From IMG/VR virus record IMGVR_UViG_2660238061_000004: 26,702 nucleotides of DNA, one strand, 5' to 3'. The DNA is from a virus (lineage: Duplodnaviria > Heunggongvirae > Uroviricota > Caudoviricetes). Under the pieces are notes generated by a model that did not search any database, was not told the origin of the DNA, and saw only the letters and a program-made list of their open reading frames with translations. Each line of letters begins with the position of its first letter. The stretch's first letter is position 1. Position numbers and translations under genes: made by a program. Shown here one piece after another: positions 3,211 to 23,868 of this stretch.

Positions 3211-3962
3211 CCTGGGATTTGGCACCTGCACTTCCGGCCAGCATTTGCAGTTCGGCAGGCACCCGGCGTGCCCGGTCATACCGTCCAGCGTCGGCGGGTT
3301 ATCCCAGCGCACAAACTTATCTTTCATCCAGCGATGTGAATCGCGCGTTCCGGCCCCTTCGATGCGCCACCAGTAGCCCTCAGAGCCAATCGACTCAGCG
3401 CGCGCCTGGGTGAGCGCTGTCGTGGCCCGGCCGATTTCGGTGCGGGCGATCATCTTCGCGCGGCTCTCTGCCACGTCGCCGGACTCCATAATCATCCGAT
3501 AGAGCGCGTCGGGGCGCTCACCGTTTATGACGGCTTCCATTGCGCGCTCCTGGATGTCACGAACGCGGTCGGCAGCTTCCAGCGGAAGAGATTTAATCAG
3601 CTGCACCTGCGGGATACGATGTCCTGAGCCACGAACCCCACCGGCGTATTGCCGACAACATCCCGCAGCCCCTCAGAGATTTCCTGCGACACAGAGCGCC
3701 ACTGGTTCCACTCCTCCTGCTCAACCTGCAGGAACATGCGTTTGGCTACCCGGTCGGCCCAGTCGTCAATCAGCAGCGAGTAATCTATCAGCCGGGCGCT
3801 AACCTGCTCGGCGCTCGCTTCCGAACCATCGTAGGAGCCAGTTACTATCGCGCCGCACTGACGCGCTATCTCCTGTAGACTTTTCTGATACTGGCGCTCC
3901 GATTTGCGGCGGAGGTTCGGTTTCAGATTCAGCCTCCTCCCATTCTGCTTTGGCATCTTCAA
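3205..3962 (-). pseudogene. phage head morphogenesis protein (Mu F / SPP1 gp7-like) split by a frameshift near 3600
   Basis: Track ORFs 3597..3962 (121 aa) and 3205..3606 (133 aa) are adjacent in different frames and together give a full-length protein; the downstream frame stays open upstream of its first start. May be a sequencing error rather than a true pseudogene. Confidence 0.55.
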
Positions 3963-5277
3963 TATCCTTGTCGGTGATAGAGCCGCCGATACCGATGATG
4001 TCGGACAGGTTGCGCAGGTCGTTCAGCGCGGCATGCTGCGGCATACCGATGTCGCGCACGGCAGTCGCCAGGGCGGTGGCCACGTTGCTGGCCATTGTCG
4101 CCCGGTCAGTGTCCGACATCTCCCAGAGCTTGTTGAACTCGAAGGTGAAGTCTTCCGGCAGGGGCTGTCCGAACAGGGAGCGCCAGGAGATATCCAGCAG
4201 CCAGCGGATGTGTCGGCGCAGGCGGCGCTCCTGCAGCGAGTTAACGCGGCTGTAGTAGTTCTCCAGATCCCCGTCGCCGGTGCTGAATCCGGATGGTGAC
4301 TGCCCGAACAGGCGCACCAGCGGGATCCCAGTTGCGCCGGATACCTGCTCAGCAAAGCGCAGGATGACATCAGCGATCCCGGCGAACGAGTAACTGTGGG
4401 TCTGGAACTCGTCCGACTTATCCATGATGGTCATGCCTTCTATGGTCTGGAACTCACGGATCATGTCCATGTGCTTCATCAGACCATCTTCCAGCGTGCC
4501 GCCAGTGGCCAGAATCTTACGCAATCCGTCAATGCTGTAGGTACGCAGGTGCGCCTTGTGAATCAGCTGTGTAGTGCCGACGGTTGCGGTATCGAACGCC
4601 TGAATGCGCTCGTAGATACGCTCGACTACCGACATTCCCCAGCCGTTCTCGGTCTGCGCCTGCTGGAATGGCAGTGTGTCACCTTCCATGCGGATAATGC
4701 GGCTGTGGTGAATCTTCCACGGGGGGATCCCCTGCTGGTTGGTCACCACCTTGTAGTACTTCGGCTTGCCGAACTCCGGGCCGTAATCGGTCACCAGGTC
4801 GTAATAGCTCGGGGTTACCTGCCAGCGGTCGAGGCACATCACCCCCTTGAACTGACCCTCTTTGATGCGGTCGAGCTTCAGCGGAGTGGACATGTCCTGC
4901 CCTTCCAGCAGCACCACCAGCAGCGCGCCGCCGTACAGCCGGGACCACTTCAGGGTGTCGTTCAGTCCGTCCCAGATGGCAATGTCATCCCAGAACATCT
5001 CAAATTTACCCTTCTGTCCGGGCTCGAGCTTGGAACTGATGTTTATGCCCTTGCGGGTCATATCATCGGCCATAGCGTCTACACCGGCGCCCACCAAAAA
5101 CGATGAACGATACGCAAATTCCAGCTGTACGCGGTTACGCGAGATATAGCCAGGCTGATAGCTCCCACCGCTCTGGATGTTGGATGTATAGCCGCCGAGC
5201 TTAGCCGCGAAGTTGTTGTACCCGTCACCAGTCCGGACGGGCTTTTGTGCGCCGCTCTGGCGTTTCTTTCGGGACAT
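3799..5277 (-). CDS. phage portal protein
   Basis: 492-aa ORF directly after terminase large; ATG 5275..5277 with GAGGGG upstream; acidic C-terminal tail. The 3' end overlaps the next gene by about 160 nt, so the true stop may be earlier. Confidence 0.75.
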   Translation of the reverse strand: MSRKKRQSGAQKPVRTGDGYNNFAAKLGGYTSNIQSGGSYQPGYISRNRVQLEFAYRSSFLVGAGVDAMADDMTRKGINISSKLEPGQKGKFEMFWDDIAIWDGLNDTLKWSRLYGGALLVVLLEGQDMSTPLKLDRIKEGQFKGVMCLDRWQVTPSYYDLVTDYGPEFGKPKYYKVVTNQQGIPPWKIHHSRIIRMEGDTLPFQQAQTENGWGMSVVERIYERIQAFDTATVGTTQLIHKAHLRTYSIDGLRKILATGGTLEDGLMKHMDMIREFQTIEGMTIMDKSDEFQTHSYSFAGIADVILRFAEQVSGATGIPLVRLFGQSPSGFSTGDGDLENYYSRVNSLQERRLRRHIRWLLDISWRSLFGQPLPEDFTFEFNKLWEMSDTDRATMASNVATALATAVRDIGMPQHAALNDLRNLSDIIGIGGSITDKDIEDAKAEWEEAESETEPPPQIGAPVSEKSTGDSASVRRDSNWLLRWFGSERRAG

Positions 5278-6530: not shown

Positions 6531-7238
6531 TTATTGTTGGGCTGTCTGCTTTCCCTCGCGCAGCTTATCCATGTGCGCTGCCCACGCTTCAGGCGGGCAG
6601 TTCGACGGCGTGACGATGCAGACCTTTCCGTAACTCAGGCCAGCCAGATCGACATTCACTTCCGTTTTGTTGCTCATGTCGATGCCGGTGAGCTGCGCGG
6701 CGTTTTTGATGTTCGGGGCTACCTGCCCAAACTTCTCAGCGTCCAGCGCGGCTTTCGCCGATTTGTAGGAGAGTTCAGCCAGGTCTTTCGCGTCGAATGA
6801 TACGAGCAGAGCGGCATCCTGACGCAGCTCTCTGATGCGCCTGCGCACATCCGGGCGTTTGAAAAGTATCGATGCCTGGGAATCAGCGCGTGAAGGCGAA
6901 TAGCCCGCGCATATCGCCGCCTCTTTCTGCGGCATGCCCCGCGCGATGTTCTGCGCAAACTGCTCATGCTGTGGTTTAAGGATGCCTGCGTTTTCCTGCG
7001 CAGTATCGCCCTCAACTGGCGTAGAGGCTTCAACCACTACTACATGCGGCATCTGGCTTTGCGCAGTTTTGCGCACATCCTTTTGCGCAGTTTTTTGCGC
7101 AGCAGGCTTTTTGATGTACCTGCGCGCAGATGTATAATTCAGTCCCTGCGCTTCGCACCATTCTTTCGGCGATATACCTGTTTTGGCATGCTCGGCGAGG
7201 AACCGTCTTTGGAGGCTTCCCCAGTCCGGTTTTGCCAT
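6531..7238 (-). CDS. terminase small subunit
   Basis: 235-aa ORF directly upstream of terminase large; N-terminal HTH-like segment ([23 protein letters not shown]); ATG at 7236..7238. Confidence 0.65.
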
Positions 7239-7374
7239 AAAACTCTCTGGAATATTCCAATAAACGAGGCGATAGTAACCATTGAAAATGACGAAGTATT
7301 AGCGGCAAAAATTATTTTGCTTCTATACAAGTGTCATGTTTCAACCCTAAGAACTTTGATGCAAAGGAACGACT

Positions 7375-7635
7375 ATGTCAGATGTAGAAAAAAGAATTGC
7401 CCATCTTGAGGATTTGGTTGAAGAGTTACAGTTACACAGCCACGCTTCTCGTGTTGCTATTGCTGTATTATCAACGGCTTTAAACGGAGTTGTGGGGAAA
7501 GAAACTCACCTCGGAGATGTTTATTTAGAAGGGGTTTCTAAGGCCGACCCCATCGAATTCGACATTCCCGCTAAAGATGGATACCTAGAAAAATTAAACG
7601 AGAGAGTCGCTGCTCTACTAGGCAGAGCACAATAA
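7375..7635 (+). CDS. small coiled-coil protein, AT-rich moron in the lambda bor position
   Basis: ATG 7375 with AAAGGAAC upstream; 86 aa (MSDVEKRIAHLEDLVEELQ...) with a hydrophobic stretch VAIAVLSTALNGVV; opposite strand to the flanking late genes; not Bor-like (no lipoprotein signal). Confidence 0.5.
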   Translation: MSDVEKRIAHLEDLVEELQLHSHASRVAIAVLSTALNGVVGKETHLGDVYLEGVSKADPIEFDIPAKDGYLEKLNERVAALLGRAQ

Positions 7636-7671
7636 GCATTTTTCAAAATCATTTTTCTTAAGCCTTTTACG

Positions 7672-7689
7672 CATCCCCTCCGGGGGATG
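7672..7689 (+). other. GC-rich hairpin after the 7375 gene, no T-run
   Basis: catcccc-tccg-ggggatg perfect 7-bp stem. Confidence 0.25.
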
Positions 7690-7726
7690 TAGCCATAAAG
7701 ATGAGTTTGTCCATAGCGTTGACACT

Positions 7727-7750
7727 AAAAAACCGCCCGTAGGCGGTTTG
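7727..7750 (-). terminator. rho-independent terminator for minus-strand (late) transcripts
   Basis: aaccgcc-cgta-ggcggtt perfect stem preceded by an A-run on plus, which is a T-run on the minus strand. Confidence 0.45.
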
Positions 7751-8134
7751 TAGGTGAAAGGAAGGCCAAGCTAATGCGAATTACTACAAGGTTCAGTTAT
7801 CCCTAATGACGCGACGGACATTTCGGGGCCAAACCAAGCAGCGTCACCTGAGCCCCTTGGCTTTTCATGAATTGACCCAACAGCGTGACCTGAAAGGCGG
7901 GAGACTCCAACGTCCCAGACGCGGGTGGTAAAAATCTCAAGATGGTCATCCATCTCGGAATTCTCCCTTCGCACTATCCTCTCGATTTCTGTTACCCCTG
8001 GCTCAGGAACCCTGACGTCACGATCAACGGTTGCTTAAGGGGAAGTCCAAAAACTGGGTCAAAAAGACCTCCTTGAACTTTCCGTGGGTTAACATTTTTT
8101 ATGATAGCGAAACGGGTAACTTTCGCAAATATTG

Positions 8135-12753: not shown

Positions 12754-12987
12754 CTAATAAAACCAGTCGTCAGCGCTTTCCCAGGTATCCTGGAGGATTG
12801 ATTCAATTTTCTTTTTATCGTCCTTGTCACCACCAAAAACACTTAACCCATCGGCCCCGGCACGGCGGATTGTGAGCCTGCAATTGTCATAGTGATCATT
12901 CAGGCGCTTAAGCAGTTCTTTCTCCAGTGCTGGTACTGCGCCTTTAGGAAGTTCTTTCATGCGATCAATGGTTAATTCAACTTTCAT
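12754..12987 (-). CDS. dinI: DinI-family protein
   Basis: 77 aa from the internal ATG (MKVELTIDRMKELPKGAVPALEKEL...ILQDTWESADDWFY) with the DinI C-terminal signature; GGGGG SD upstream; LexA box about 20 bp upstream. Confidence 0.8.
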   Translation of the reverse strand: MKVELTIDRMKELPKGAVPALEKELLKRLNDHYDNCRLTIRRAGADGLSVFGGDKDDKKKIESILQDTWESADDWFY

Positions 12988-13005
12988 AATGGCCCCCATT
13001 GCATG

Positions 13006-13478: not shown

Positions 13479-14042
13479 TTGAAGCGAGTAGAGCGCGATT
13501 TTATCTGTCTGTTTAATTGTGTGTGGTATCAAGATTTCCCTGTGTTCAAAGGTGAATATATCAACCGTTCCAACTGGACCATTCATGTTGGCCTGGTCAT
13601 GCGCGAGTGTGCAAAGTTAATGGGCGCAAGAACATTTTTTGAACAAGGCGGGCGTACCGATGCGGTCCTACAATATCCAGACAATCAAATTTTAACCTAT
13701 GTTGAGTGGGAGTATAATCAGGCAGACAGAGATAGCGTTAACGAGTTAGACAAACTGCTTGAAAAAAACGACAAGTGCTATTTCTCCACATTCATCTCAT
13801 ATTGTCAGCATGAAAACATCAATATTGTTATTGAAAAAGCAAGTAGAATATGGAGTGAAGCAAGCAGGCCTTTGATTTTTTTTCTTATCACCTATGAGCC
13901 TCAAACGAAAAAACGCCGCCATTTTTTAGAACTCAGAACTTATTTTTTCTCAAACGGCAAAAGAAAACTAGTTCGCAAACAACCTGCGCTTCCATGGGAT
14001 ATTGAGCAACGAAAATACAATGTCGAAGAAGATGCAGGATAG
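13479..14042 (+). CDS. orphan 187-aa protein, AT-rich, function unknown
   Basis: TTG start with strong GGGGGGAGG SD 3-4 nt upstream; roughly 40 percent GC by eye versus a GC-richer backbone; opposite strand to the surrounding phage genes. Confidence 0.5.
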   Translation: MKRVERDFICLFNCVWYQDFPVFKGEYINRSNWTIHVGLVMRECAKLMGARTFFEQGGRTDAVLQYPDNQILTYVEWEYNQADRDSVNELDKLLEKNDKCYFSTFISYCQHENINIVIEKASRIWSEASRPLIFFLITYEPQTKKRRHFLELRTYFFSNGKRKLVRKQPALPWDIEQRKYNVEEDAG

Positions 14043-14550: not shown

Positions 14551-14742
14551 AACTTTATGTTACTCATGAGTCTTGTCTCGCTGCGACTTAAAAGCGGAAC
14601 ATTCTCGCGCAAGTTGCGTTGCTAAAGCTACGGGGTTGAATGGCTCTCCATGCCCATTTAAGAAGGCATGCGGTGTGTAGTTGAACGTTATTTAAAACAC
14701 AGATAGAATCAAGAAAAATCCTAAATAAATGGAATATTGTTT

Positions 14743-15123
14743 ATGGCTAAGAAAATCGCATTACTGGGCTTTTCTGCTCTTTTTGTTGCAAGTGTTGCTT
14801 TTGCTGAAACGACAAGTAACTGGGTTGAGGTTACTACAGCTGATGATGGCATTTTTTCAGCAAAAAAAGGCACATTTAGAAATGTAAAAGGTGATTCATC
14901 TGCCTTGTTCATGTATCAAACAAAAAATAAAAAAGTAGAGTACTACAAAGTTAGTATTAAAGATGCCGACTGTGATAGTGGATATGGGGAGATAAGATTC
15001 TTCTATATGGATGGGAAATTAGCTTTCAAAGGTGATTATGTTGCTGATGGGAACAGTGTTGGCGCAGGTATTGGTGATTTTATGTGTGGAGTCAGAATTG
15101 GACTTAACACACAAAAAAGTTAA
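14743..15123 (+). CDS. small secreted/periplasmic protein, function unknown
   Basis: MAKKIALLGFSALFVASVAFA signal peptide (AFA-E cleavage motif), about 105-aa mature domain with two Cys; AT-rich; no strong SD. Confidence 0.55.
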   Translation: MAKKIALLGFSALFVASVAFAETTSNWVEVTTADDGIFSAKKGTFRNVKGDSSALFMYQTKNKKVEYYKVSIKDADCDSGYGEIRFFYMDGKLAFKGDYVADGNSVGAGIGDFMCGVRIGLNTQKS

Positions 15124-16835: not shown

Positions 16836-17747
16836 TTACCCCCTGAATCCGGGTGGGATTGTTTTGTCTGGCTCAGAAATGCGGTTCACATCCCTGCCCG
16901 TTTTGCGAGCGTTGAGAGCGAACTTCGGTTTAAACAGTCCCTGGTACCCGTTGGCGATACTGGTGTTGATCACATCAACGGGGTCATGCCCAGCGTCCAG
17001 GCAAGCCTTGAGCAACTTGAATGCTTTGGTGACCGTCATTTCGGTCTTGATGGCTTTGCCAGACTGTTGGCGGTAGGCCACCCACTCACTCCAGGACACA
17101 GAATCAAGCCACTCAGGAACGGGAATCGTCAGCGGGTCAAACTTACCCTTCCCCTTTGGGGGATTAGAGGGGGTTAGATCTGTATTTATATTTGTATTTG
17201 GAAGAATGTCTTTGGTGTTCCCTGTTTTCAGGGATACCTCTCCCTGTTTTTGGGGATGGTTATCCCCGTTTTCAGGGATGATTGAAGGGGTAAAATTGCT
17301 ATCCCTGAATTCAGGGATGGTAATAACCCATGTGACAACTTCAGCAGCAGGAAACACCGCTGGACACTTCATGCAATTTGGCTTGGTATACGCCCATTTA
17401 TCCAGGCTGGTATTAATCCCTATGTATCTGGTTTGCCCAATGCGGCGCAGGATGATGATGTTCCGATAGGCAAGGCTCAACACGGCTTCAGAGACGTGTT
17501 TCACCTTCAGCGTCGTTTTATCTGCAATGAGGCTATTGGCGATGCGGTCAGAACTCTTAGACCAGCCATAGGTCAGACGAACGATAGCATTCAGCACCCG
17601 GAACTCGCGCCCGGATAGTTCGACGATACACAGGGCATCCTGAATCTGGTTGGCCAGGCGCAAATAGCCTTTCTCCAGTTCAGCCATGCTGCTCTCCTGT
17701 TTCCCCTGCTGTGTGGGGAATTTGAATATTTCAGCGGTATTTGACAT
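16836..17747 (-). CDS. replication initiation protein O-like
   Basis: N-terminal region (MSNTAEIFKFP...REFRVLNAIVRLTYGWSK...) resembles lambda O from memory; iterons lie inside the gene; start taken at the internal Met (track ORF runs to 17780). Confidence 0.8.
   Translation of the reverse strand: MSNTAEIFKFPTQQGKQESSMAELEKGYLRLANQIQDALCIVELSGREFRVLNAIVRLTYGWSKSSDRIANSLIADKTTLKVKHVSEAVLSLAYRNIIILRRIGQTRYIGINTSLDKWAYTKPNCMKCPAVFPAAEVVTWVITIPEFRDSNFTPSIIPENGDNHPQKQGEVSLKTGNTKDILPNTNINTDLTPSNPPKGKGKFDPLTIPVPEWLDSVSWSEWVAYRQQSGKAIKTEMTVTKAFKLLKACLDAGHDPVDVINTSIANGYQGLFKPKFALNARKTGRDVNRISEPDKTIPPGFRG
17178..17212. other. AT-rich tract next to the iterons (candidate unwinding element)
   Basis: gatctgtatttatatttgtatttggaagaatg immediately beside the iteron array, on the side expected for the direction of O transcription. 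Confidence 0.45.
17219..17317. repeat. origin iterons: four 16-bp palindromic repeats
   Basis: tccctgttttcaggga (17219), tccctgtttttgggga (17241), tccccgttttcaggga (17263), tccctgaattcaggga (17302); spacing 22, 22 and 39 bp; resemble lambda ori iterons. Confidence 0.7.
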
Positions 17748-17831
17748 ACTGTTCTCCGCAATTACGCACAGTTTTTGCACCTGAAAGCCGTTGGTGTTCG
17801 AGCACCGCGGCTTTCGCCATTTCTGAGCCCG

Positions 17832-18389
17832 TCATAGCGCACCACCCAGCATCGTTGTAACCATCGCCATAATGGGCGCCACAGAATCAGGTCCGTCCAG
17901 GTAGAGCTTGGCTACGATGCTCTCGCTGATTTCCTTCATCCGTTCGTGTCTGGGGGCTTTGAGGACGACAGCCTGTATCGCCTCAGCGTCTTCTTTCACC
18001 GACCTGGCGACACGAACCGCAAAGCAGTCGTGCTTAATCACGCGATCCCGGTACGCCAGCGGCAGAACCGAAATTATTACCGGCGCCAGCTGCTCGACGT
18101 TCGCCCGGTAGGCCGGTGATTTCTCGTGGTTGTCCAGCCAGCGAAACAGCTTCACGTTCCACACATCGGCGCTGCCGGTCATGTCAATGCTGTCAAGCTC
18201 GGCCTGTTCGGCAGCCTCTTTAATCGCCAGAGCGACCGCCACGCGGCCCTCTGCCGCCGCCCAGGCGCGGACGGCAGAACAGATAGCCCGGTGATCGACC
18301 GGCTGGCCTTCAGCCTCACTGTGTTGATACTGGAATTTCAGGTGCTCTGATGGCGCTCTGTTATTCTGTTGAAAAGAAAGTGTTTGCAT
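17832..18389 (-). CDS. hypothetical early-region protein in the cII position
   Basis: 185-aa ORF between the cro-like gene and O; no family recognised. Confidence 0.4.
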   Translation of the reverse strand: MQTLSFQQNNRAPSEHLKFQYQHSEAEGQPVDHRAICSAVRAWAAAEGRVAVALAIKEAAEQAELDSIDMTGSADVWNVKLFRWLDNHEKSPAYRANVEQLAPVIISVLPLAYRDRVIKHDCFAVRVARSVKEDAEAIQAVVLKAPRHERMKEISESIVAKLYLDGPDSVAPIMAMVTTMLGGAL

Positions 18390-18400
18390 TGTCAGTGCTC

Positions 18401-18619
18401 CTACTTTGGTAATCCGTCAGTGGGATTTGGATAGAGATCAGGGCGCAGCTCGTGGGGGGTTACGCCTGTCATTTTGAAAATCGGGAAGATATAGCTTGGC
18501 GGGACGATCCCTTGGTCACGATTCTTCCAATGACTTACAGACATACTCGTCACACCAAGCGCGATGCTGAGCTTTCTGGCAGAGCCAGCGGCTTTAATTG
18601 CTTTATCGAGTGCGGACAT
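18401..18619 (-). CDS. Cro-like HTH regulator
   Basis: 72 aa; HTH SARKLSIALGVTSMSVSHWKNR; AGGAGA SD; divergent from the repressor gene. Confidence 0.7.
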   Translation of the reverse strand: MSALDKAIKAAGSARKLSIALGVTSMSVSHWKNRDQGIVPPSYIFPIFKMTGVTPHELRPDLYPNPTDGLPK

Positions 18620-18648
18620 GTGCTTCTCCTGCTTATTGATAGCAGAAG

Positions 18649-18711
18649 TAAACCACAGATTTATACTTCATGCAAACTTTGGATTTATTGCGTGCATAAA
18701 CCAAATATTTA
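18649..18711. promoter_or_regulatory. right operator region: three related operator sites about 24 bp apart, overlapping divergent promoters
   Basis: TAAACCACAGATTTA (18649), AAACTTTGGATTTA (18673), TAAACCAAATATTTA (18697); TTGCGT-16 nt-TACAAT precedes the repressor ATG by about 6 nt, implying a near-leaderless transcript. Confidence 0.5.
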
Positions 18712-18721
18712 CAATGACCAT

Positions 18722-19111
18722 ATGAGAAAAGAAGAACCCAACCTCGTTCTGGTGGAGCGCCTTACTGAGATCACTGATCGCGGCGTTACCAAAGCAGACA
18801 TGGCAAGAATAGCTGGAGTCACCCCTCAGGCCGTAAACGGCTGGTTCAAAAAAGGCGTGATTAGTAAGAAATCGGCACTGGCCATAGCCGACGCTGTTGG
18901 TATTTCTGTCGCCTGGCTACTCGGTGAAGACGTTGGGGAGAAAGACGGTCTCAAACCGGACGAACAGCGTTTGCTCGAGCTCTACCGCCAGTTACCGGAA
19001 GAAGAGCAGCAGAACATGCTCCGCATTTTTGCGCTTCGCCTGAAAGAGTTAGATGAGCTGTACGAGAAGTACATGAAGGGTCGGATTCGATCGCAAGGTG
19101 AGCAAACCTAA
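18722..19111 (+). CDS. CI-like phage repressor (XRE HTH) without a peptidase domain
   Basis: 129 aa from ATG 18722; HTH MARIAGVTPQAVNGWFKKG; short C-terminal helical region; track ORF 18452..19111 has a spurious N-terminal extension overlapping cro. Confidence 0.65.
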   Translation: MRKEEPNLVLVERLTEITDRGVTKADMARIAGVTPQAVNGWFKKGVISKKSALAIADAVGISVAWLLGEDVGEKDGLKPDEQRLLELYRQLPEEEQQNMLRIFALRLKELDELYEKYMKGRIRSQGEQT

Positions 19112-19175
19112 ACCAGTAGTATCTAATTCCATGTAATAAAAATATTTCAAGATTTAATATCTTCTGGAGGATTCG

Positions 19176-19457
19176 GTGTCTAAAGAAACAACCGTCGAAC
19201 TTATGCATCTTAATGATGTAATCGAAGCGAAAAATTTCATCGAGACCAATGCTGACGGTGTCGTAACAATCGGCACACAAAATGCCGGTTACGAAGTTTA
19301 CAATTTTGTGTTCCTGAATAGCAGCCCGATCATCGGTACGGATAATGCGGATATAGTCGTCAAGGGCATGCAGCGAACCAAAGTTGTGTCTGTGACTTTA
19401 AGCAAACAAAAGGCTTATGATTTTTATCAATCCTTAAAAAGTATGTTTGAGGAATAA
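19176..19457 (+). CDS. orphan 93-aa protein, first gene of the rex-position pair
   Basis: GTG start with GGAGGA SD; AT-rich; immediately downstream of the repressor on the same strand. Confidence 0.5.
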   Translation: MSKETTVELMHLNDVIEAKNFIETNADGVVTIGTQNAGYEVYNFVFLNSSPIIGTDNADIVVKGMQRTKVVSVTLSKQKAYDFYQSLKSMFEE

Positions 19458-19463
19458 TAATTG

Positions 19464-19985
19464 ATGGATGCGGCTCAATCATCTCTTGGTGAAGGGAAGT
19501 TATTGATTGCATATTCAGACCATAGCGGAGCTACAGTAGGCTTAGAGTTTTCATCAGTAGCTTCGAGCCAAGCAACCTTCCTTATGGGTGCTTGTAGTTT
19601 TGCCGCTTCGGATAAACAAAAACGGATTGTCACATCAGTTGCTATGGATGATACTGAAATCATTCATACGTCAACTGAAGATGGAGGTGACGACATGGAA
19701 AAGAGATTGGCTATTCTTGAGGTTGAAGTTGCCCACATCAAGAAAGATGTTGCCGAGATAAAAAACACAGTTTCAAAAGTTGATACGACAGTGAATTCAC
19801 TGGACAAAAATATGGCTGTAGTTTTGGAGAGGCTGTCTAGTATCAAAGAGTCTGTAGACAAAAAGCCCTCATCAGACACAGTGGACAAGAAAATCTCTGA
19901 TGCTAAATTGGCGATTCTCTTAGGTGTCCCTGCGATTATCGCCATTGGTACAGGGCTGTACAAAGCTTTTATGCACTTCTTTTAG
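19464..19985 (+). CDS. orphan 173-aa protein with coiled-coil and C-terminal membrane anchor, second gene of the pair
   Basis: ATG 19464 with GAGGAA SD; heptad-like middle (MEKRLAILEVEVAHIKKDVAEIKNTV...); hydrophobic C-terminus LAILLGVPAIIAIGTGLYKAF. Confidence 0.55.
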   Translation: MDAAQSSLGEGKLLIAYSDHSGATVGLEFSSVASSQATFLMGACSFAASDKQKRIVTSVAMDDTEIIHTSTEDGGDDMEKRLAILEVEVAHIKKDVAEIKNTVSKVDTTVNSLDKNMAVVLERLSSIKESVDKKPSSDTVDKKISDAKLAILLGVPAIIAIGTGLYKAFMHFF

Positions 19986-20058
19986 TCAGATTTGGTCAAT
20001 ACGCCTGAGTTATAAGGCTCTCAGCTACTAACTCTGTCGCCTTCCCCGAACCTTCTCA

Positions 20059-20085
20059 TCCCGACCACGCGTCGGGATTTTTTTT
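20059..20085 (+). terminator. rho-independent terminator ending the repressor operon
   Basis: tcccgac-cacgc-gtcggga perfect stem followed by eight T. Confidence 0.65.
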
Positions 20086-20124
20086 GCCTGCGATTCTGCA
20101 GACGTGTCACAAAACCCAGCCACA

Positions 20125-20188
20125 TAAACCTCAGATTTACAATTAACACTAACCTTAAGTTGACACATATATAAACCAGTGATTTAAT
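20125..20188 (+). promoter_or_regulatory. pL-like early promoter with operator repeats
   Basis: TTGACA (20160..20165), 17-nt spacer, TTTAAT (20183..20188); operator-like TAAACCTCAGATTTA (20125) and TAAACCAGTGATTTA (20172) match the right-operator sites. Confidence 0.55.
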
Positions 20189-20440
20189 CTAACTCACCAA
20201 GACGCACCACGAACCACCCAGGCATGGAGCCCACGAAGTAGCCGTCCGGGGCATACGAAAACCGGAATGAGGTGGTGATATTAACGCGCAGTAGGTTTGA
20301 AACGTTCCGCCAGCCTGGCGACAAGGGCAAACACAGAAGTGAGCTTCGCGGTGGTGAATTGCAGAGTTAAAACGCTCAACTGTGAAGATCAGCGTCACGG
20401 CACCACCAGCGAAGTTCACTCAGCAATAGTGGAGAACATC

Positions 20441-20647
20441 ATGGTTCATCAGCACTACGGTACACAGACAGTAAACCGCGGCGCAGTTCAGCCGGGGATG
20501 CTTGTAAAACACAAAGACTCAACCTGGACCGCATCTGCTAACGCACGCGGTCGCCTGTATCTTCACCGTGGCATCGAACGTACCTACACCAAAGATTTGC
20601 TGGTTGAGGTTTATCTAAACGGTTTAGGACATGGCCTTAGCCATTAA
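20441..20647 (+). CDS. small hypothetical protein, first gene of the early-left operon
   Basis: ATG 20441 with GGAGAA SD; 68 aa; the track ORF 20297..20647 starts at an unlikely TTG. Confidence 0.4.
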   Translation: MVHQHYGTQTVNRGAVQPGMLVKHKDSTWTASANARGRLYLHRGIERTYTKDLLVEVYLNGLGHGLSH

Positions 20648-20658
20648 CGGAGTGAGTT

Positions 20659-20820
20659 ATGCAGGAGAAAAAATGCGCGTACTGCCGCAAGCCGATCAAG
20701 CAAGGGAAGGAAGTTAAAAACGAACTGCTCTTTATCCACGGCACGCAGTTGAAACGCGAGCAACGTGATTACTGTTCAGTACGTTGCGCTTCGTTCGACC
20801 AGATGGCCCACGAAGCATAA
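20659..20820 (+). CDS. small zinc-finger-like protein, 53 aa (below the ORF-track size cut-off)
   Basis: ATG 20659 with GGAG SD; MQEKKCAYCRKPIKQGKEV...DYCSVRCASFDQMAHEA; paired Cys motifs; TAA at 20818..20820. Confidence 0.4.
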   Translation: MQEKKCAYCRKPIKQGKEVKNELLFIHGTQLKREQRDYCSVRCASFDQMAHEA

Positions 20821-20958
20821 CGAAAACCCCGCGCAAGGCGAGATTCACGTCCGGTGCCACCGACCAAAGTTACACCGGAATTTATACCAAACCAAAAAAC
20901 ATCCAATGGGCGCTATCTCTGGCCCGGGGATTCTAACACTCAAAAAAGAGGATCTCAC

Positions 20959-23868
20959 ATGGAATTTTTCCATCTGATAAAAGCCAGTCAGAAGTCTGGC
21001 AAGAAAGATGCAGTGATTTGGTTCACTGCGAAAAGTGTAGCGCGCGCCAATCTCCAACTCGATGTGGCACTGGAAGAAGCCGGAATTGAAGAAACTGGCC
21101 GCGGTAAAGATTATGCCAAACCAATCCGCACCGATTTCCCGGTATATGACGACCTGCCGGAAGAAGGCGCAGTGGATTACACCTGGTGCAAACGCTACGA
21201 ACTGCAGAACGATGACCGCACCTGGATGCCAAAAGTCACAGCTGAAAACTCTGACGAGAAAACGGCTCAGACCGTTGATAGTCACATAACTACTGAGTCA
21301 ACGCTGCCAGAAACCGCTGGCATCACGCTGGACGAACACGACGACGACTCAACCCTCTACCCGGTAGTGCAGATGCCGTTTCGTAAGCAACTGCTTTCCC
21401 AGTTCACCGCCGACGAACTGCGCCACCACGTAACCCGCGAAGAGTACGAAGCTATCGGCGCGCTGGAGATGGACACTGATAACAGTTACGTCCAGAACTT
21501 GCTGTTAGCTGCTGAGAACTGCCCGGACGTGAAGGGTTACGACACCAAAGACCTGTGGCGCTACACCGATGCCATTCGCAAAGTGTTCAGCCAGGACAAG
21601 CGTCACGAACTCGCGCTGGTACTCCGTTTCACCAGAATGTGGGCGGCGACTGATTACATTGACCGTGGCATCCTGGCGCGTGAATGGGCTGCCGGTAATC
21701 ACATCAGTAGTGTTCAGCGTACTGATTCCGGAACCAATGCCAACGGCGGTTACGTCACTGACCGTGGACCTGATGCATACCATACCCTTGACACTCTCGA
21801 TTTAGAGATTGCATGTGCCCTTCTGCCTATGGACTTCAACCACTTCGAGATCCCGGGCAGCATTCTTCGTCGCGCTAAAGAAATCGTGACCAAAAAAGAA
21901 GAACCGTGGAAATCATGGAGCAGCATTCTGCGCAATCAACCCGGCGTTCTTGGCGTTAACCGCACAGCTATTTTTAACCTGATACGTATCGCGCCGGAAA
22001 ATATTCATCTAACTCCTGTCGCTCACCTGGAGTTTGTTAACCGGACCATGACTGCTGCGTTTAATGCTGCTGTTGAGTTATTGCCATTGCATGAAGCTGA
22101 GCCCGCAACACAGGAAATTCCCCAACCTGAAAGTAAGGAGTCTCCACGCAAACCCTTCTGCACTCACGAAGAGAACCTGCAACGCGTACGTGAAGAAGAA
22201 GCACGCCGCCGCGCAGAGGAAGCGACAGCACAACCACATAAAGCCGAACAAGAACTGGTTAAAAATGTCGGCAACGGAATATTCGATGTTACGGCTTTAC
22301 TGCAGAACTCAGCAACTCATGGCACGAAACAGGCTACGGAAACCACCAGCAATGTGCAGGTTCAAGAAACTGTCAGTGATGAAAAAAATGTTGGTAATGA
22401 AATGCAGTCAGGCGAAAGCAGTCTGGAAACTGGTGAAGAGTCACATCCCGGCCAGCAGGCCGATGTAAACCAAAATACGGAATCTGTCGCTCAAAATAGC
22501 GATTCTGTAAACCAGACTGAACCAGTTTTGGCACACGTCGAGCCAGAGGCGCAATCTGACGAACAAGCTGTTTTTTACCCCGATTACTTCGAGCCTGGGC
22601 GCTATGAAGGTCTGCCGAACGAGGTTTACCACGCTGCCAACGGCATCAGTTCCACCCAGGTAAAAGATGCGCGCGTTTCGCTGATGTACTTCAATGCGCG
22701 CCACGTTGAGAAAACCATCGTCAAAGAGCGCTCCTCAGTGCTGGACATGGGAAACCTGGTACATGCGCTGGCGTTGCAGCCAGAACAGCTCGATGAAGAA
22801 TTTAGCGTTGAACCCGTAATTCCGGAAGGTGCATTTACCACCACGGCAACGATCCGCGCGTTTATTGATGAGTACAACGCCAGCCTGCCAGCGCAACTGA
22901 GCGCAGACGATATCAAAGCTTTGCTGGATGAATACAACGCCACCCTGCCAGCGCTGGTGCCGCTGGGCGCTAGCCTGGATGAAACGGCGCAGAACTATAT
23001 GGCGCTGCCAGCTGAATTCCAACGTATCGATGCAGATCAGAAGAAGACAGCAACAGCAATGAAGGCGTGCATCAAAGAGTACAACGCCACCCTGCCAGCG
23101 CAGATTAAAACCAGCGGCAGCCGCGACGCACTACTCGAACAACTTGCGATTATCAATCCTGACCTGGTCGCGCAGGAAGCTCAGAAGCTGCAACCGCTGA
23201 AAGTCTCTGGCACGAAGGCCGATCTGATTCAGGCCGTGAAGGCAGTCAAACCAGATGCAGTGTTCGCCGACGAGCTGCTCGATGCGTGGCGCAACAACCC
23301 GGAAGGGAAAGTGCTGGTTACCCACCAGCAACTTGCCACCGCGCAGGCAATTCAGTCAGCACTGCTCTCGCACCCGACCGCAGGCATGCTGCTAACCCAC
23401 CCGAGCCGCGCCGTTGAGGTGAGCTACTTTGGCTTTGACGAGGAGACGGGACTGGAAGTTCGTGTGCGCCCTGACCTTGAGATCGACCTAGACGGCGTGC
23501 GTATCGGTGCTGACCTGAAAACCATCAGCATGTGGAATGTTAAGCAGGAAAGCCTGCGCGCCAGGCTACACCGGGAAATTATTGAACGTGATTATCACCT
23601 GAGCGCGGCTATGTACTGCGAAACCGCAGCGCTGGATCAGTTCTTCTGGATTTTCGTCAACAAAGACGAGAACTACCACTGGATCGCCATCATCGAGGCA
23701 TCCGCTGAACTACTGGAGCTGGGTATGCTCGAGTACCGCAAAGCGATGCGCAATATCGCAACCGGATTCGACACAGGTGAATGGCCAGCGCCAATCACTG
23801 CTGACTACACCGACGAACTGAACGACTTCGACCTGCGCCGCCTTGAAGCGCTGCGTACTCAGGCATAA
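20959..23868 (+). CDS. recE: exodeoxyribonuclease VIII (RecE-like)
   Basis: 969 aa from ATG 20959 (AGAGGA SD); N-terminal region matches Rac RecE as I recall it (...DFPVYDDLPEEGAVDYTWCKRYELQNDDRTW...); large acidic linker; C-terminal nuclease-like domain; followed by recT. Confidence 0.8.
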   Translation: MEFFHLIKASQKSGKKDAVIWFTAKSVARANLQLDVALEEAGIEETGRGKDYAKPIRTDFPVYDDLPEEGAVDYTWCKRYELQNDDRTWMPKVTAENSDEKTAQTVDSHITTESTLPETAGITLDEHDDDSTLYPVVQMPFRKQLLSQFTADELRHHVTREEYEAIGALEMDTDNSYVQNLLLAAENCPDVKGYDTKDLWRYTDAIRKVFSQDKRHELALVLRFTRMWAATDYIDRGILAREWAAGNHISSVQRTDSGTNANGGYVTDRGPDAYHTLDTLDLEIACALLPMDFNHFEIPGSILRRAKEIVTKKEEPWKSWSSILRNQPGVLGVNRTAIFNLIRIAPENIHLTPVAHLEFVNRTMTAAFNAAVELLPLHEAEPATQEIPQPESKESPRKPFCTHEENLQRVREEEARRRAEEATAQPHKAEQELVKNVGNGIFDVTALLQNSATHGTKQATETTSNVQVQETVSDEKNVGNEMQSGESSLETGEESHPGQQADVNQNTESVAQNSDSVNQTEPVLAHVEPEAQSDEQAVFYPDYFEPGRYEGLPNEVYHAANGISSTQVKDARVSLMYFNARHVEKTIVKERSSVLDMGNLVHALALQPEQLDEEFSVEPVIPEGAFTTTATIRAFIDEYNASLPAQLSADDIKALLDEYNATLPALVPLGASLDETAQNYMALPAEFQRIDADQKKTATAMKACIKEYNATLPAQIKTSGSRDALLEQLAIINPDLVAQEAQKLQPLKVSGTKADLIQAVKAVKPDAVFADELLDAWRNNPEGKVLVTHQQLATAQAIQSALLSHPTAGMLLTHPSRAVEVSYFGFDEETGLEVRVRPDLEIDLDGVRIGADLKTISMWNVKQESLRARLHREIIERDYHLSAAMYCETAALDQFFWIFVNKDENYHWIAIIEASAELLELGMLEYRKAMRNIATGFDTGEWPAPITADYTDELNDFDLRRLEALRTQA

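Follow-up and report, generated by a model that had tools for sequence, protein, structure and literature searches.

A two-gene cassette in the rexAB position of an Escherichia coli lambdoid prophage, possibly an exclusion module with a tail-anchored coiled-coil protein

What does a lysogen gain from two small genes that a prophage carries directly behind its repressor gene? In textbooks, the interval between cI and N of lambda belongs to RexAB, an abortive-infection system that is the oldest of its kind and remains poorly understood. The question is raised again by the stretch of DNA analysed here (the window, 26,702 nucleotides (nt) of the IMG/VR record IMGVR_UViG_2660238061_000004), which is an Escherichia coli lambdoid (Rac/Gifsy-like) prophage and carries at this place two genes, orfA and orfB, for proteins of 93 and 173 amino acids (aa). 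In our preferred reading, to which we give a probability of about 0.45, orfA-orfB would be a lysogen-expressed exclusion cassette resembling abortive-infection systems, whose tail-anchored effector would protect the lysogen against other phages.

The gene order of the window runs from the putative right operator (OR) through the repressor gene, orfA, orfB and a terminator to the putative left operator (OL) and leftward promoter (PL), and matches the lambda order OR - cI - rexA - rexB - Timm - OL (Table 1). An earlier annotation made from the letters of this DNA (the sequence-only reading) had placed two genes between repressor and terminator, in the position of lambda rexA-rexB; their coordinates proved exact, and both genes lie inside the OR-OL interval. 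The GenBank annotation of phage HK544 gives the order cI - c104 - c103 - Timm - oL3-oL1 - pL - N, with the homologous pair sitting behind lambda cI itself, where it replaces rexAB. In VT1-Sakai, the Stx1 prophage of O157:H7, the pair likewise follows CI, and the terminator is annotated as being "for pRM transcript".

Table 1. Features of the immunity region and of the orfA-orfB cassette, in positions of the window.
Feature	Position	Strand	Remarks
Replication-initiator gene	16836-17780	-	
YdaT/CII-like gene	17832-18389	-	
Cro-like (YdaS family) lytic regulator	18401-18619	-	Divergent from the repressor; Pfam YdaS_toxin 1.4e-13, PHROG 35
OR, putative	18649-18663, 18697-18711		Two copies of the 15-nt operator-like motif TAAACCnnnnATTTA, between cro and repressor
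Prophage repressor	18722-19111	+	129 aa, helix-turn-helix (HTH) only; HTH_3 1.5e-6, Phage_CI_repr 8.6e-4, NCBIfam DicA subfamily 1.9e-8
Exchangeable cassette	19102-20068	+	Other cargo stands here in prophages that share the repressor and cro
orfA	19176-19457	+	GTG start, 93 aa, PHROG 12039
orfB	19464-19985	+	ATG start, 173 aa, PHROG 12602 (N part) and PHROG 3556 (C part)
OrfB N-terminal domain, aa 1-70	19464-19673	+	From AlphaFold2 secondary structure; co-varies with the orfA family
OrfB GGDDME cap and coiled coil, aa 74-133	19683-19862	+	Eight uninterrupted heptads
OrfB KKPS hinge, juxtamembrane helix and C-terminal transmembrane (TM) helix	19863-19982	+	TM helix at aa ~147-166, LAILLGVPAIIAIGTGLY
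Intrinsic terminator	20058-20086	+	Closes the repressor-orfA-orfB unit; analogue of lambda Timm
OL, putative	20125-20139, 20172-20186		Two more copies of TAAACCnnnnATTTA, flanking TTGACA at 20160

The borders of the cassette were set by prophages that share the cro and repressor genes (94-99.6% nt identity) and carry other cargo between them. Homology ends at 19101 for E. coli ET881 (locus L002) and at 19077 for E. coli AR_0118 (locus L003), in the last codons of the repressor gene, and returns at 20069, within the terminator stem. In ET881 the slot (L002 6749-8152) holds a single 467-aa hypothetical protein with no Pfam or PADLOC match, a further candidate cargo of the hotspot that is likewise uncharacterised, and in AR_0118 (L003 6726-8553) it holds a second HTH protein, YoaK, HicA/HicB and a 141-aa hypothetical protein. 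The AT-richness of the two genes noted in the sequence-only reading is borne out: the module has a guanine plus cytosine (GC) content of 0.41 (0.40 for orfA and 0.42 for orfB), whereas the window as a whole has 0.523 and the repressor gene 0.52, and among 810-nt windows the module falls in the 5th percentile. Variable cargo between conserved flanks, a deviant GC content, a terminator of its own and a homologue detected as protein make orfA-orfB an accessory moron cassette of the cI-N hotspot, presumably expressed in the lysogen. The cI-N interval has been described as a hotspot of mosaic diversity housing rexAB and bstA (PMC8585504, PMC7067206; both cite Degnan et al. 2007), and it is the cI promoter that drives bstA (PMC8585504, PMC7067206).

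Both genes have the strong Shine-Dalgarno sequences that had been noted, GGAGGA at 19166-19171, 5 nt before the GTG of orfA, and GAGGA at 19449-19453, 10 nt before the ATG of orfB, and they are separated by a gap of 6 nt. Expression together with the repressor had also been proposed. A sequence scan from the repressor stop to orfA found no promoter-like or terminator-like site, and the unit ends in an 8-bp stem with five GC pairs (20058-20078) followed by T8 (-12.6 kcal/mol, z = -2.5), an anatomy that supports expression together with the repressor, presumably from the maintenance promoter. Co-expression is further supported by proteomics, in which ECs2991, the O157:H7 homologue of orfA, was detected in uninduced, rumen-fluid-grown cultures (PMC3936929); co-transcription is the part of the claim that we infer. 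The scan for an internal orfB promoter, comparable to lambda PLIT, gave only sigma-70-like matches at 9 of 12 positions, in a number (5 against 3.3 +/- 2.0 expected) that corresponds to chance. Two of these weak matches lie at 19392-19461, at the 3' end of orfA just before orfB, and recall the location of PLIT within rexA.

RefSeq starts orfA at an ATG at 19203, giving a protein of 84 aa. We prefer the 93-aa GTG reading because the homologues are almost all of 93 aa and the profile of the uncharacterised family PHROG 12039 aligns to residues 1-93 of 93 (E value of 1.6e-47). OrfA is an acidic (isoelectric point (pI) of 4.9), soluble protein with no hydrophobic segment, and it is predicted to be beta-rich with a C-terminal helix, in an AlphaFold2 model of low confidence (predicted local distance difference test (pLDDT) values of 47 and 60 for the OrfA and OrfB models). 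The nonsynonymous substitution rate (dN) of orfA is 0.20-0.29 with a saturated synonymous rate (dS), and the dN/dS ratio of orfB is 0.16-0.24 against its E. coli and Cronobacter homologues. Purifying selection and the conservation across Enterobacterales mark orfA and orfB as genuine genes and not chance open reading frames (ORFs).

The coiled coil and the C-terminal membrane anchor that the sequence-only reading had attributed to the 173-aa protein are confirmed by prediction here. OrfB matches two uncharacterised families, PHROG 12602 over residues 1-147 (2.7e-54) and PHROG 3556 over residues 63-173 (3.2e-28). AlphaFold2 predicts a beta-beta-alpha-beta N-terminal domain (residues 10-58), followed by a disordered acidic/glycine linker and by helices at residues 78-132 and 137-172. 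Between residues 78 and 133, all 16 of the a and d heptad positions are hydrophobic in a single register, and an exact 7-aa indel distinguishes OrfB homologues in this region. The KKPS motif behind the coiled coil is invariant among the homologues, and the only hydrophobic stretch of the protein spans residues 143-165 (Kyte-Doolittle maximum over 19 residues of 1.96). Since there is no signal peptide and only 7 residues lie past the helix, a tail-anchored topology with the N terminus inside is the simplest reading, and OrfB would be anchored in this way in the inner membrane. The protein probably oligomerises via the coiled coil, and the beta-branched residues found at both a and d would, speculatively, favour three or more chains.

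The 93-aa protein had been called an orphan, which does not hold: it belongs to a small family of about 18 representatives. The hidden Markov model (HMM) of the orfA family, run against 1.84 billion representative proteins, gives 18 matches at E <= 1e-3, the genuine ones being 85-103-aa proteins of Enterobacterales. A few, long multi-repeat matches to the profile (FN3-like and similar), were dismissed as spurious repeats. The relatives of OrfB, which form 57 clusters, come without exception from Enterobacterales. Part of them have the full length (170-183 aa), and others, of 96-148 aa, have only residues ~74-173 in common with it. In the phage collection the pair is present in HK544, VT1-Sakai and phiSTEC801-Stx1a, and among complete E. 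coli genomes we find 13 records with the window allele (12 covering at least 80% of the query) and 95 with the HK544/Sp15 allele, the latter mostly O157:H7, all annotated as "hypothetical protein". The two alleles differ in the variant of the C-terminal TM helix, and the known true homologues of the pair share 74-75% aa identity with orfA and about 55% with orfB. Published annotations of homologues read hypothetical or "putative membrane protein" (PMC1890555). The pair of ORFs itself is not new, as HK544 c104/c103 and ECs2991/2992 have been in the databases since 2000-2007, and our literature search found no paper assigning a function to it. The sensitive homology and structure searches that had been recommended yielded homologous families and no function.

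A wider pattern emerges from 97 loci encoding the C-terminal module of OrfB, which were gathered and analysed with a simple ORF caller. They contain 49 distinct combinations of a partner with an OrfB-like protein (B), with a partner ORF called in 45, and the distance from the partner stop to the B start ranges from -34 to +29 nt (median 2). The C-terminal module is constant, consisting of a GG(D/G)xM(E/L)xR-AxLE cap, heptads, the invariant KKPS, a juxtamembrane helix and a TM helix, the latter in three variants that are shuffled across the types of N-terminal domain. The N terminus of B and the partner, on the other hand, co-vary. Partners of the orfA family (32 loci) occur with a B having a type I N-terminal domain of about 60 aa, whereas distant orfA members (28-35% identity) occur with a different, type II domain. 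A third type of N terminus goes with a partner family of 87-91 aa (29 loci), remotely homologous to orfA with an hhalign probability of 89% (E = 2e-6, 82 collinear columns). Partners of 139-187 aa, with only weak DUF6941 or Ig-like hints, are combined with a short B whose N terminus is only a glycine-rich linker, and rarer partners include a 119-aa Zn-ribbon protein and a 99-aa XhlA-like coiled-coil/TM protein (locus L034). Gene fission, with the 144-148-aa partners corresponding to OrfA plus the N-terminal domain of OrfB, was rejected (hhalign probability 0.1% against both). It appears not to have been recognised before that one tail-anchored coiled-coil module, itself constant but joined to interchangeable partners, has settled in the rexAB and sieA slots. 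Swapped sensors on a constant effector would resemble a pattern familiar from conflict systems, although mosaicism alone is no proof of such a role.

The homologous pairs lie directly after at least 8 different repressors, among them lambda cI (HK544) and S24-type CI proteins of 210, 215, 219, 225, 230-255 and 241 aa in E. coli, Cronobacter and metagenomic Enterobacteriaceae. The 42 unique ORFs upstream of the partner match HTH_3 in 29 cases, Peptidase_S24 in 21 and Arc in 1, the remainder being mostly artefacts of ORF calling. In two P22-like prophages, L030 (3304-4360) and L050 (~3328-4270), the order is tailspike and Ant, both leftward, Mnt-like repressor, partner and B, all three rightward, and a leftward gene 16, where the equivalent interval of P22 holds mnt - orf59a - sieA. 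The partner types of L030 and L050 differ, which indicates that the sieA slot was colonised more than once. In Serratia prophages the module lies among the clustered tail genes, where it follows the tail terminator, a Big_2 major-tail-like gene and DUF6246, and the Serratia grimesii variant (L031 3556-4300) has the 119-aa partner with the CxxC...CxxC Zn ribbon. The exclusion moron gp15 of HK97 sits at a comparable place. In two Pantoea loci the module is found at the prophage edge beside host genes.

The sequence-only reading had seen no resemblance to Rex, and neither do we: the best BLASTP match of orfA to RexA has an E value of 2.4, the orfA-family HMM scores RexA with 0.2 bits, and OrfB shows no similarity to RexB by BLASTP or HMM. 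The likeness lies in position and organisation, both being two-gene units behind the repressor in which the gene for a soluble protein precedes that for a membrane protein, and with expression in the lysogen presumed for orfA-orfB. The Rex system excludes T4 rII and other phages by depolarising the membrane. RexA, in contrast to the acidic OrfA of 93 aa, is a dimeric protein of 279 aa, and RexB is polytopic with four hydrophobic segments, where OrfB has one C-terminal helix and a long coiled coil. RexA binds DNA and has a role in the bistable switch of lambda (PMC11077077). With P22 SieA the cassette shares, through its two relatives behind Mnt-like repressors, the interval and probably also the character of an inner-membrane protein expressed in the lysogen. 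SieA, however, is a single polytopic protein with about four hydrophobic segments, the copy in the window occupies the cI slot and not immI, and neither the orfB-family HMM (3.8 bits) nor BLASTP (E = 2.0) indicates homology; P22 orf59a has no similarity to the pair by BLASTP or the family HMMs. BstA of Salmonella phage BTP1, Stk and HicAB use the same cI-N hotspot and ride on the repressor promoter (PMC8585504, PMC7067206), but BstA, which acts alone as a soluble protein associated with DNA and has an aba self-immunity site, is unrelated in sequence and architecture. In architecture the nearest analogues of OrfB are XhlA-type proteins, which have an N-terminal coiled coil and a C-terminal TM helix, exactly the architecture of the 99-aa L034 partner, whereas xhlA genes belong to lysis cassettes and the OrfB family stands behind repressors. 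The match to XhlA is a weak one to the "hemolysin" family PHROG 937 (1.4e-5, over the coiled coil only) and also to PHROG 1193, with Pfam XhlA unmatched at E <= 1, and the similarity may be one of coiled-coil composition alone. By these comparisons the pair belongs to none of the Rex, SieA, BstA or catalogued defence families.

How might such a pair exclude a phage? OrfB would insert into the inner membrane by its single C-terminal helix, leaving about 145 acidic residues facing the cytoplasm, and would form an oligomer via the eight-heptad coiled coil. OrfA and the N-terminal ~60 residues of OrfB may be the specificity or regulatory part, which would keep OrfB inactive or sense a cue of infection; binding of OrfA to the N-terminal domain of OrfB is suggested by their co-variation. 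Upon a trigger, the clustered TM helices, which have many small-xxx-small motifs and an invariant Pro, could disturb the inner membrane, so that the infection would be aborted or blocked. The exclusion role and the membrane-perturbing effector step would then amount to a division of labour like that of RexA and RexB, built from unrelated parts.

Several points weigh against this exclusion reading. No homology, fold match or paper assigns exclusion or abortive infection to the pair. Scans of both proteins and their relatives with Pfam, NCBIfam and PADLOC gave only coiled-coil noise: in PADLOC-DB 2.0, which is without systems described after 2023, OrfA has no matches and OrfB only matches in the coiled-coil region to LmuB/DruC/JetA (E values of 1e-3 to 1e-2, 12-16 bits), and the relatives behave alike. 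Profile searches of solved structures found nothing for orfA at E <= 10 and only generic coiled coils for orfB, and the PDB fold searches, made with the low-confidence models, returned an uninformative set of matches. The position by itself would equally suit morons without a defence function, such as lom and bor, and the few family members in the tail-gene cluster and at the prophage edge are away from any repressor. One tail-anchor helix would be a minimal pore former. The HK544-type C terminus ends in KKGQ, a poorer fit to the positive-inside rule for the predicted topology, and co-transcription with the repressor in this phage is deduced from its anatomy. Of the proposal that this is a site for exclusion or abortive infection, the positional argument stands and is considerably strengthened by the comparative data, the sieA position of P22-like phages included; the exclusion role would follow from position and architecture.

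The family as a whole allows a broader and more tentative proposal, to which we lend less credence than to the exclusion role itself. The module may represent a widespread and hitherto unrecognised modular prophage defence family of Enterobacterales, in which small cytoplasmic sensors are exchanged around a SNARE-like, tail-anchored coiled-coil effector that stays constant (GGDxME cap, heptads, KKPS hinge and TM helix). It would have settled in all the classical sites from which a lysogen expresses genes, namely downstream of cI or mnt and at moron sites in tail genes and at prophage edges, with one copy in the Stx1 prophage of O157:H7, and would act by a membrane mechanism unrelated to that of RexB.

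The alternative that survives best, while still unlikely, is another kind of lysogenic conversion acting on host physiology, such as a membrane-tethered stress or stationary-phase factor like the tail-anchored ElaB/YqjD. The tail anchor with its helical cytoplasmic part would fit, and so would the detection of ECs2991 in rumen-fluid-grown O157. Neither protein, however, has a sequence match to DUF883/ElaB, and the fast swapping of partners and the mosaicism are typical of conflict systems and not of housekeeping add-ons.

We regard it as improbable, ranking next, that the pair modulates the cycle of its own prophage (bias of the switch, control of induction or timing of lysis) as RexA or XhlA-type lysis accessories do. 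The linkage specifically to repressor genes of both CI and Mnt type speaks for it, together with the switch role of RexA (PMC11077077) and the weak, coiled-coil-only matches to the PHROG XhlA families. On the other side, both proteins are acidic (pI of about 4.9) and have no DNA-binding signature, and the cassette is dispensable: prophages whose repressor, cro and operators are identical have unrelated cargo in its place. Its occurrence behind at least 8 unrelated repressors also argues against a repressor-specific partner, and among the loci examined the module is never found in a lysis cassette.

Slightly less favoured is superinfection exclusion at the entry step, as by SieA or HK97 gp15, with OrfB hindering DNA translocation across the inner membrane without sensing or killing. 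It draws on the relatives in the P22 sieA slot, on one relative at a tail-gene moron site of a Serratia prophage and on the predicted inner-membrane anchoring. Nearly all of the mass of OrfB and all of OrfA are, however, predicted to be cytoplasmic, with 0-10 residues past the TM helix across the family, whereas the proteins known to block entry are either polytopic or exposed to the periplasm; SieA, to which OrfB has no sequence similarity, has several membrane segments.

The least probable of the four is a toxin-antitoxin-like addiction pair that stabilises the prophage, with OrfB as membrane toxin and OrfA as its upstream neutraliser, for which two small and tightly coupled genes (6 nt apart here, median 2 nt), soluble then membrane, and HicAB in the same slot of a sister prophage can be cited, but neither protein has a Pfam or NCBIfam toxin-antitoxin domain or matches any such family and no promoter-like site of the pair's own precedes orfA; as many toxin-antitoxin systems act as abortive infection, this explanation also overlaps with the exclusion reading.

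The remaining anatomy of the prophage is that of a lambdoid immunity region. The stretch 18400-20200 is 99.9% identical to the chromosome of NCTC11023 and to 12 further complete genomes, and the NCTC11023 copy is a full prophage adjoining kch, with head, tail, lysis, Q, replication, immunity, RecE/RecT and integrase genes. The motif TAAACCnnnnATTTA forms a four-copy repeat family with two copies on each side of the repressor-orfA-orfB unit, which we read as operator-like OR and OL pairs, and the TTGACA at 20160 is a putative PL for the kil/YdaE/RecE/RecT operon. Past OL follow a small gene in the kil position, YdaE, RecE and RecT. Family scans find no Peptidase_S24 autocleavage domain in the repressor, so that induction probably proceeds via an antirepressor or another route and not by RecA-mediated self-cleavage. 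A DinI-family gene lies at 12754-12999 on the minus strand. The Rfam scan of 18000-21000 found nothing near the gathering score; the sub-threshold matches, isrB at 20822-20917 on the minus strand (26.9 bits against a gathering score of 35) and a Betaproteobacteria toxic small RNA at 20035-20085 on the plus strand (24.8 bits against 50), which overlaps the terminator hairpin, are probably due to chance.

RecE is a single 1004-aa ORF in the window (20854-23868), while the same region of the 99.9%-identical NCTC11023 is annotated as two coding sequences (a RecE family protein and a PD-(D/E)XK domain protein), suggesting a frameshift or an assembly difference in the NCTC11023 record. A second AT-rich island at ~12.6-15.2 kb (GC content of 0.37-0.46) contains two plus-strand ORFs amid the minus-strand early-right genes, one of 187 aa at 13479-14042 with no Pfam match and one of 126-128 aa at 14737-15123 with an N-terminal signal-peptide-like sequence (MAKKIALLGFSALFVASVAFA); both look like additional moron or accessory genes. 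A third AT-rich dip (7000-8000, GC content of 0.41-0.45) separates the small terminase gene from the lysis genes, and its NCTC11023 equivalent holds an oppositely oriented gene for an 86-aa hypothetical protein (L001 8977-9237).

An unrelated two-gene cassette that replaces rexAB behind the same lambda cI, as in HK544, is a natural isogenic experiment on the purpose of the slot, and lambda and HK544 as a natural isogenic pair make the question directly testable. If the cassette does not serve defence, the hotspot carries another class of lysogen function. If it does, the tail-anchored coiled-coil protein with its swappable partners would be a new type of effector, and an explanation would be at hand for two conserved genes, annotated as "hypothetical", that occur in about 2% of complete E. 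coli genomes, among them most of the O157:H7 strains that carry Stx1. Such a system could shape which phages, therapeutic ones included, are able to grow on these O157:H7 strains.

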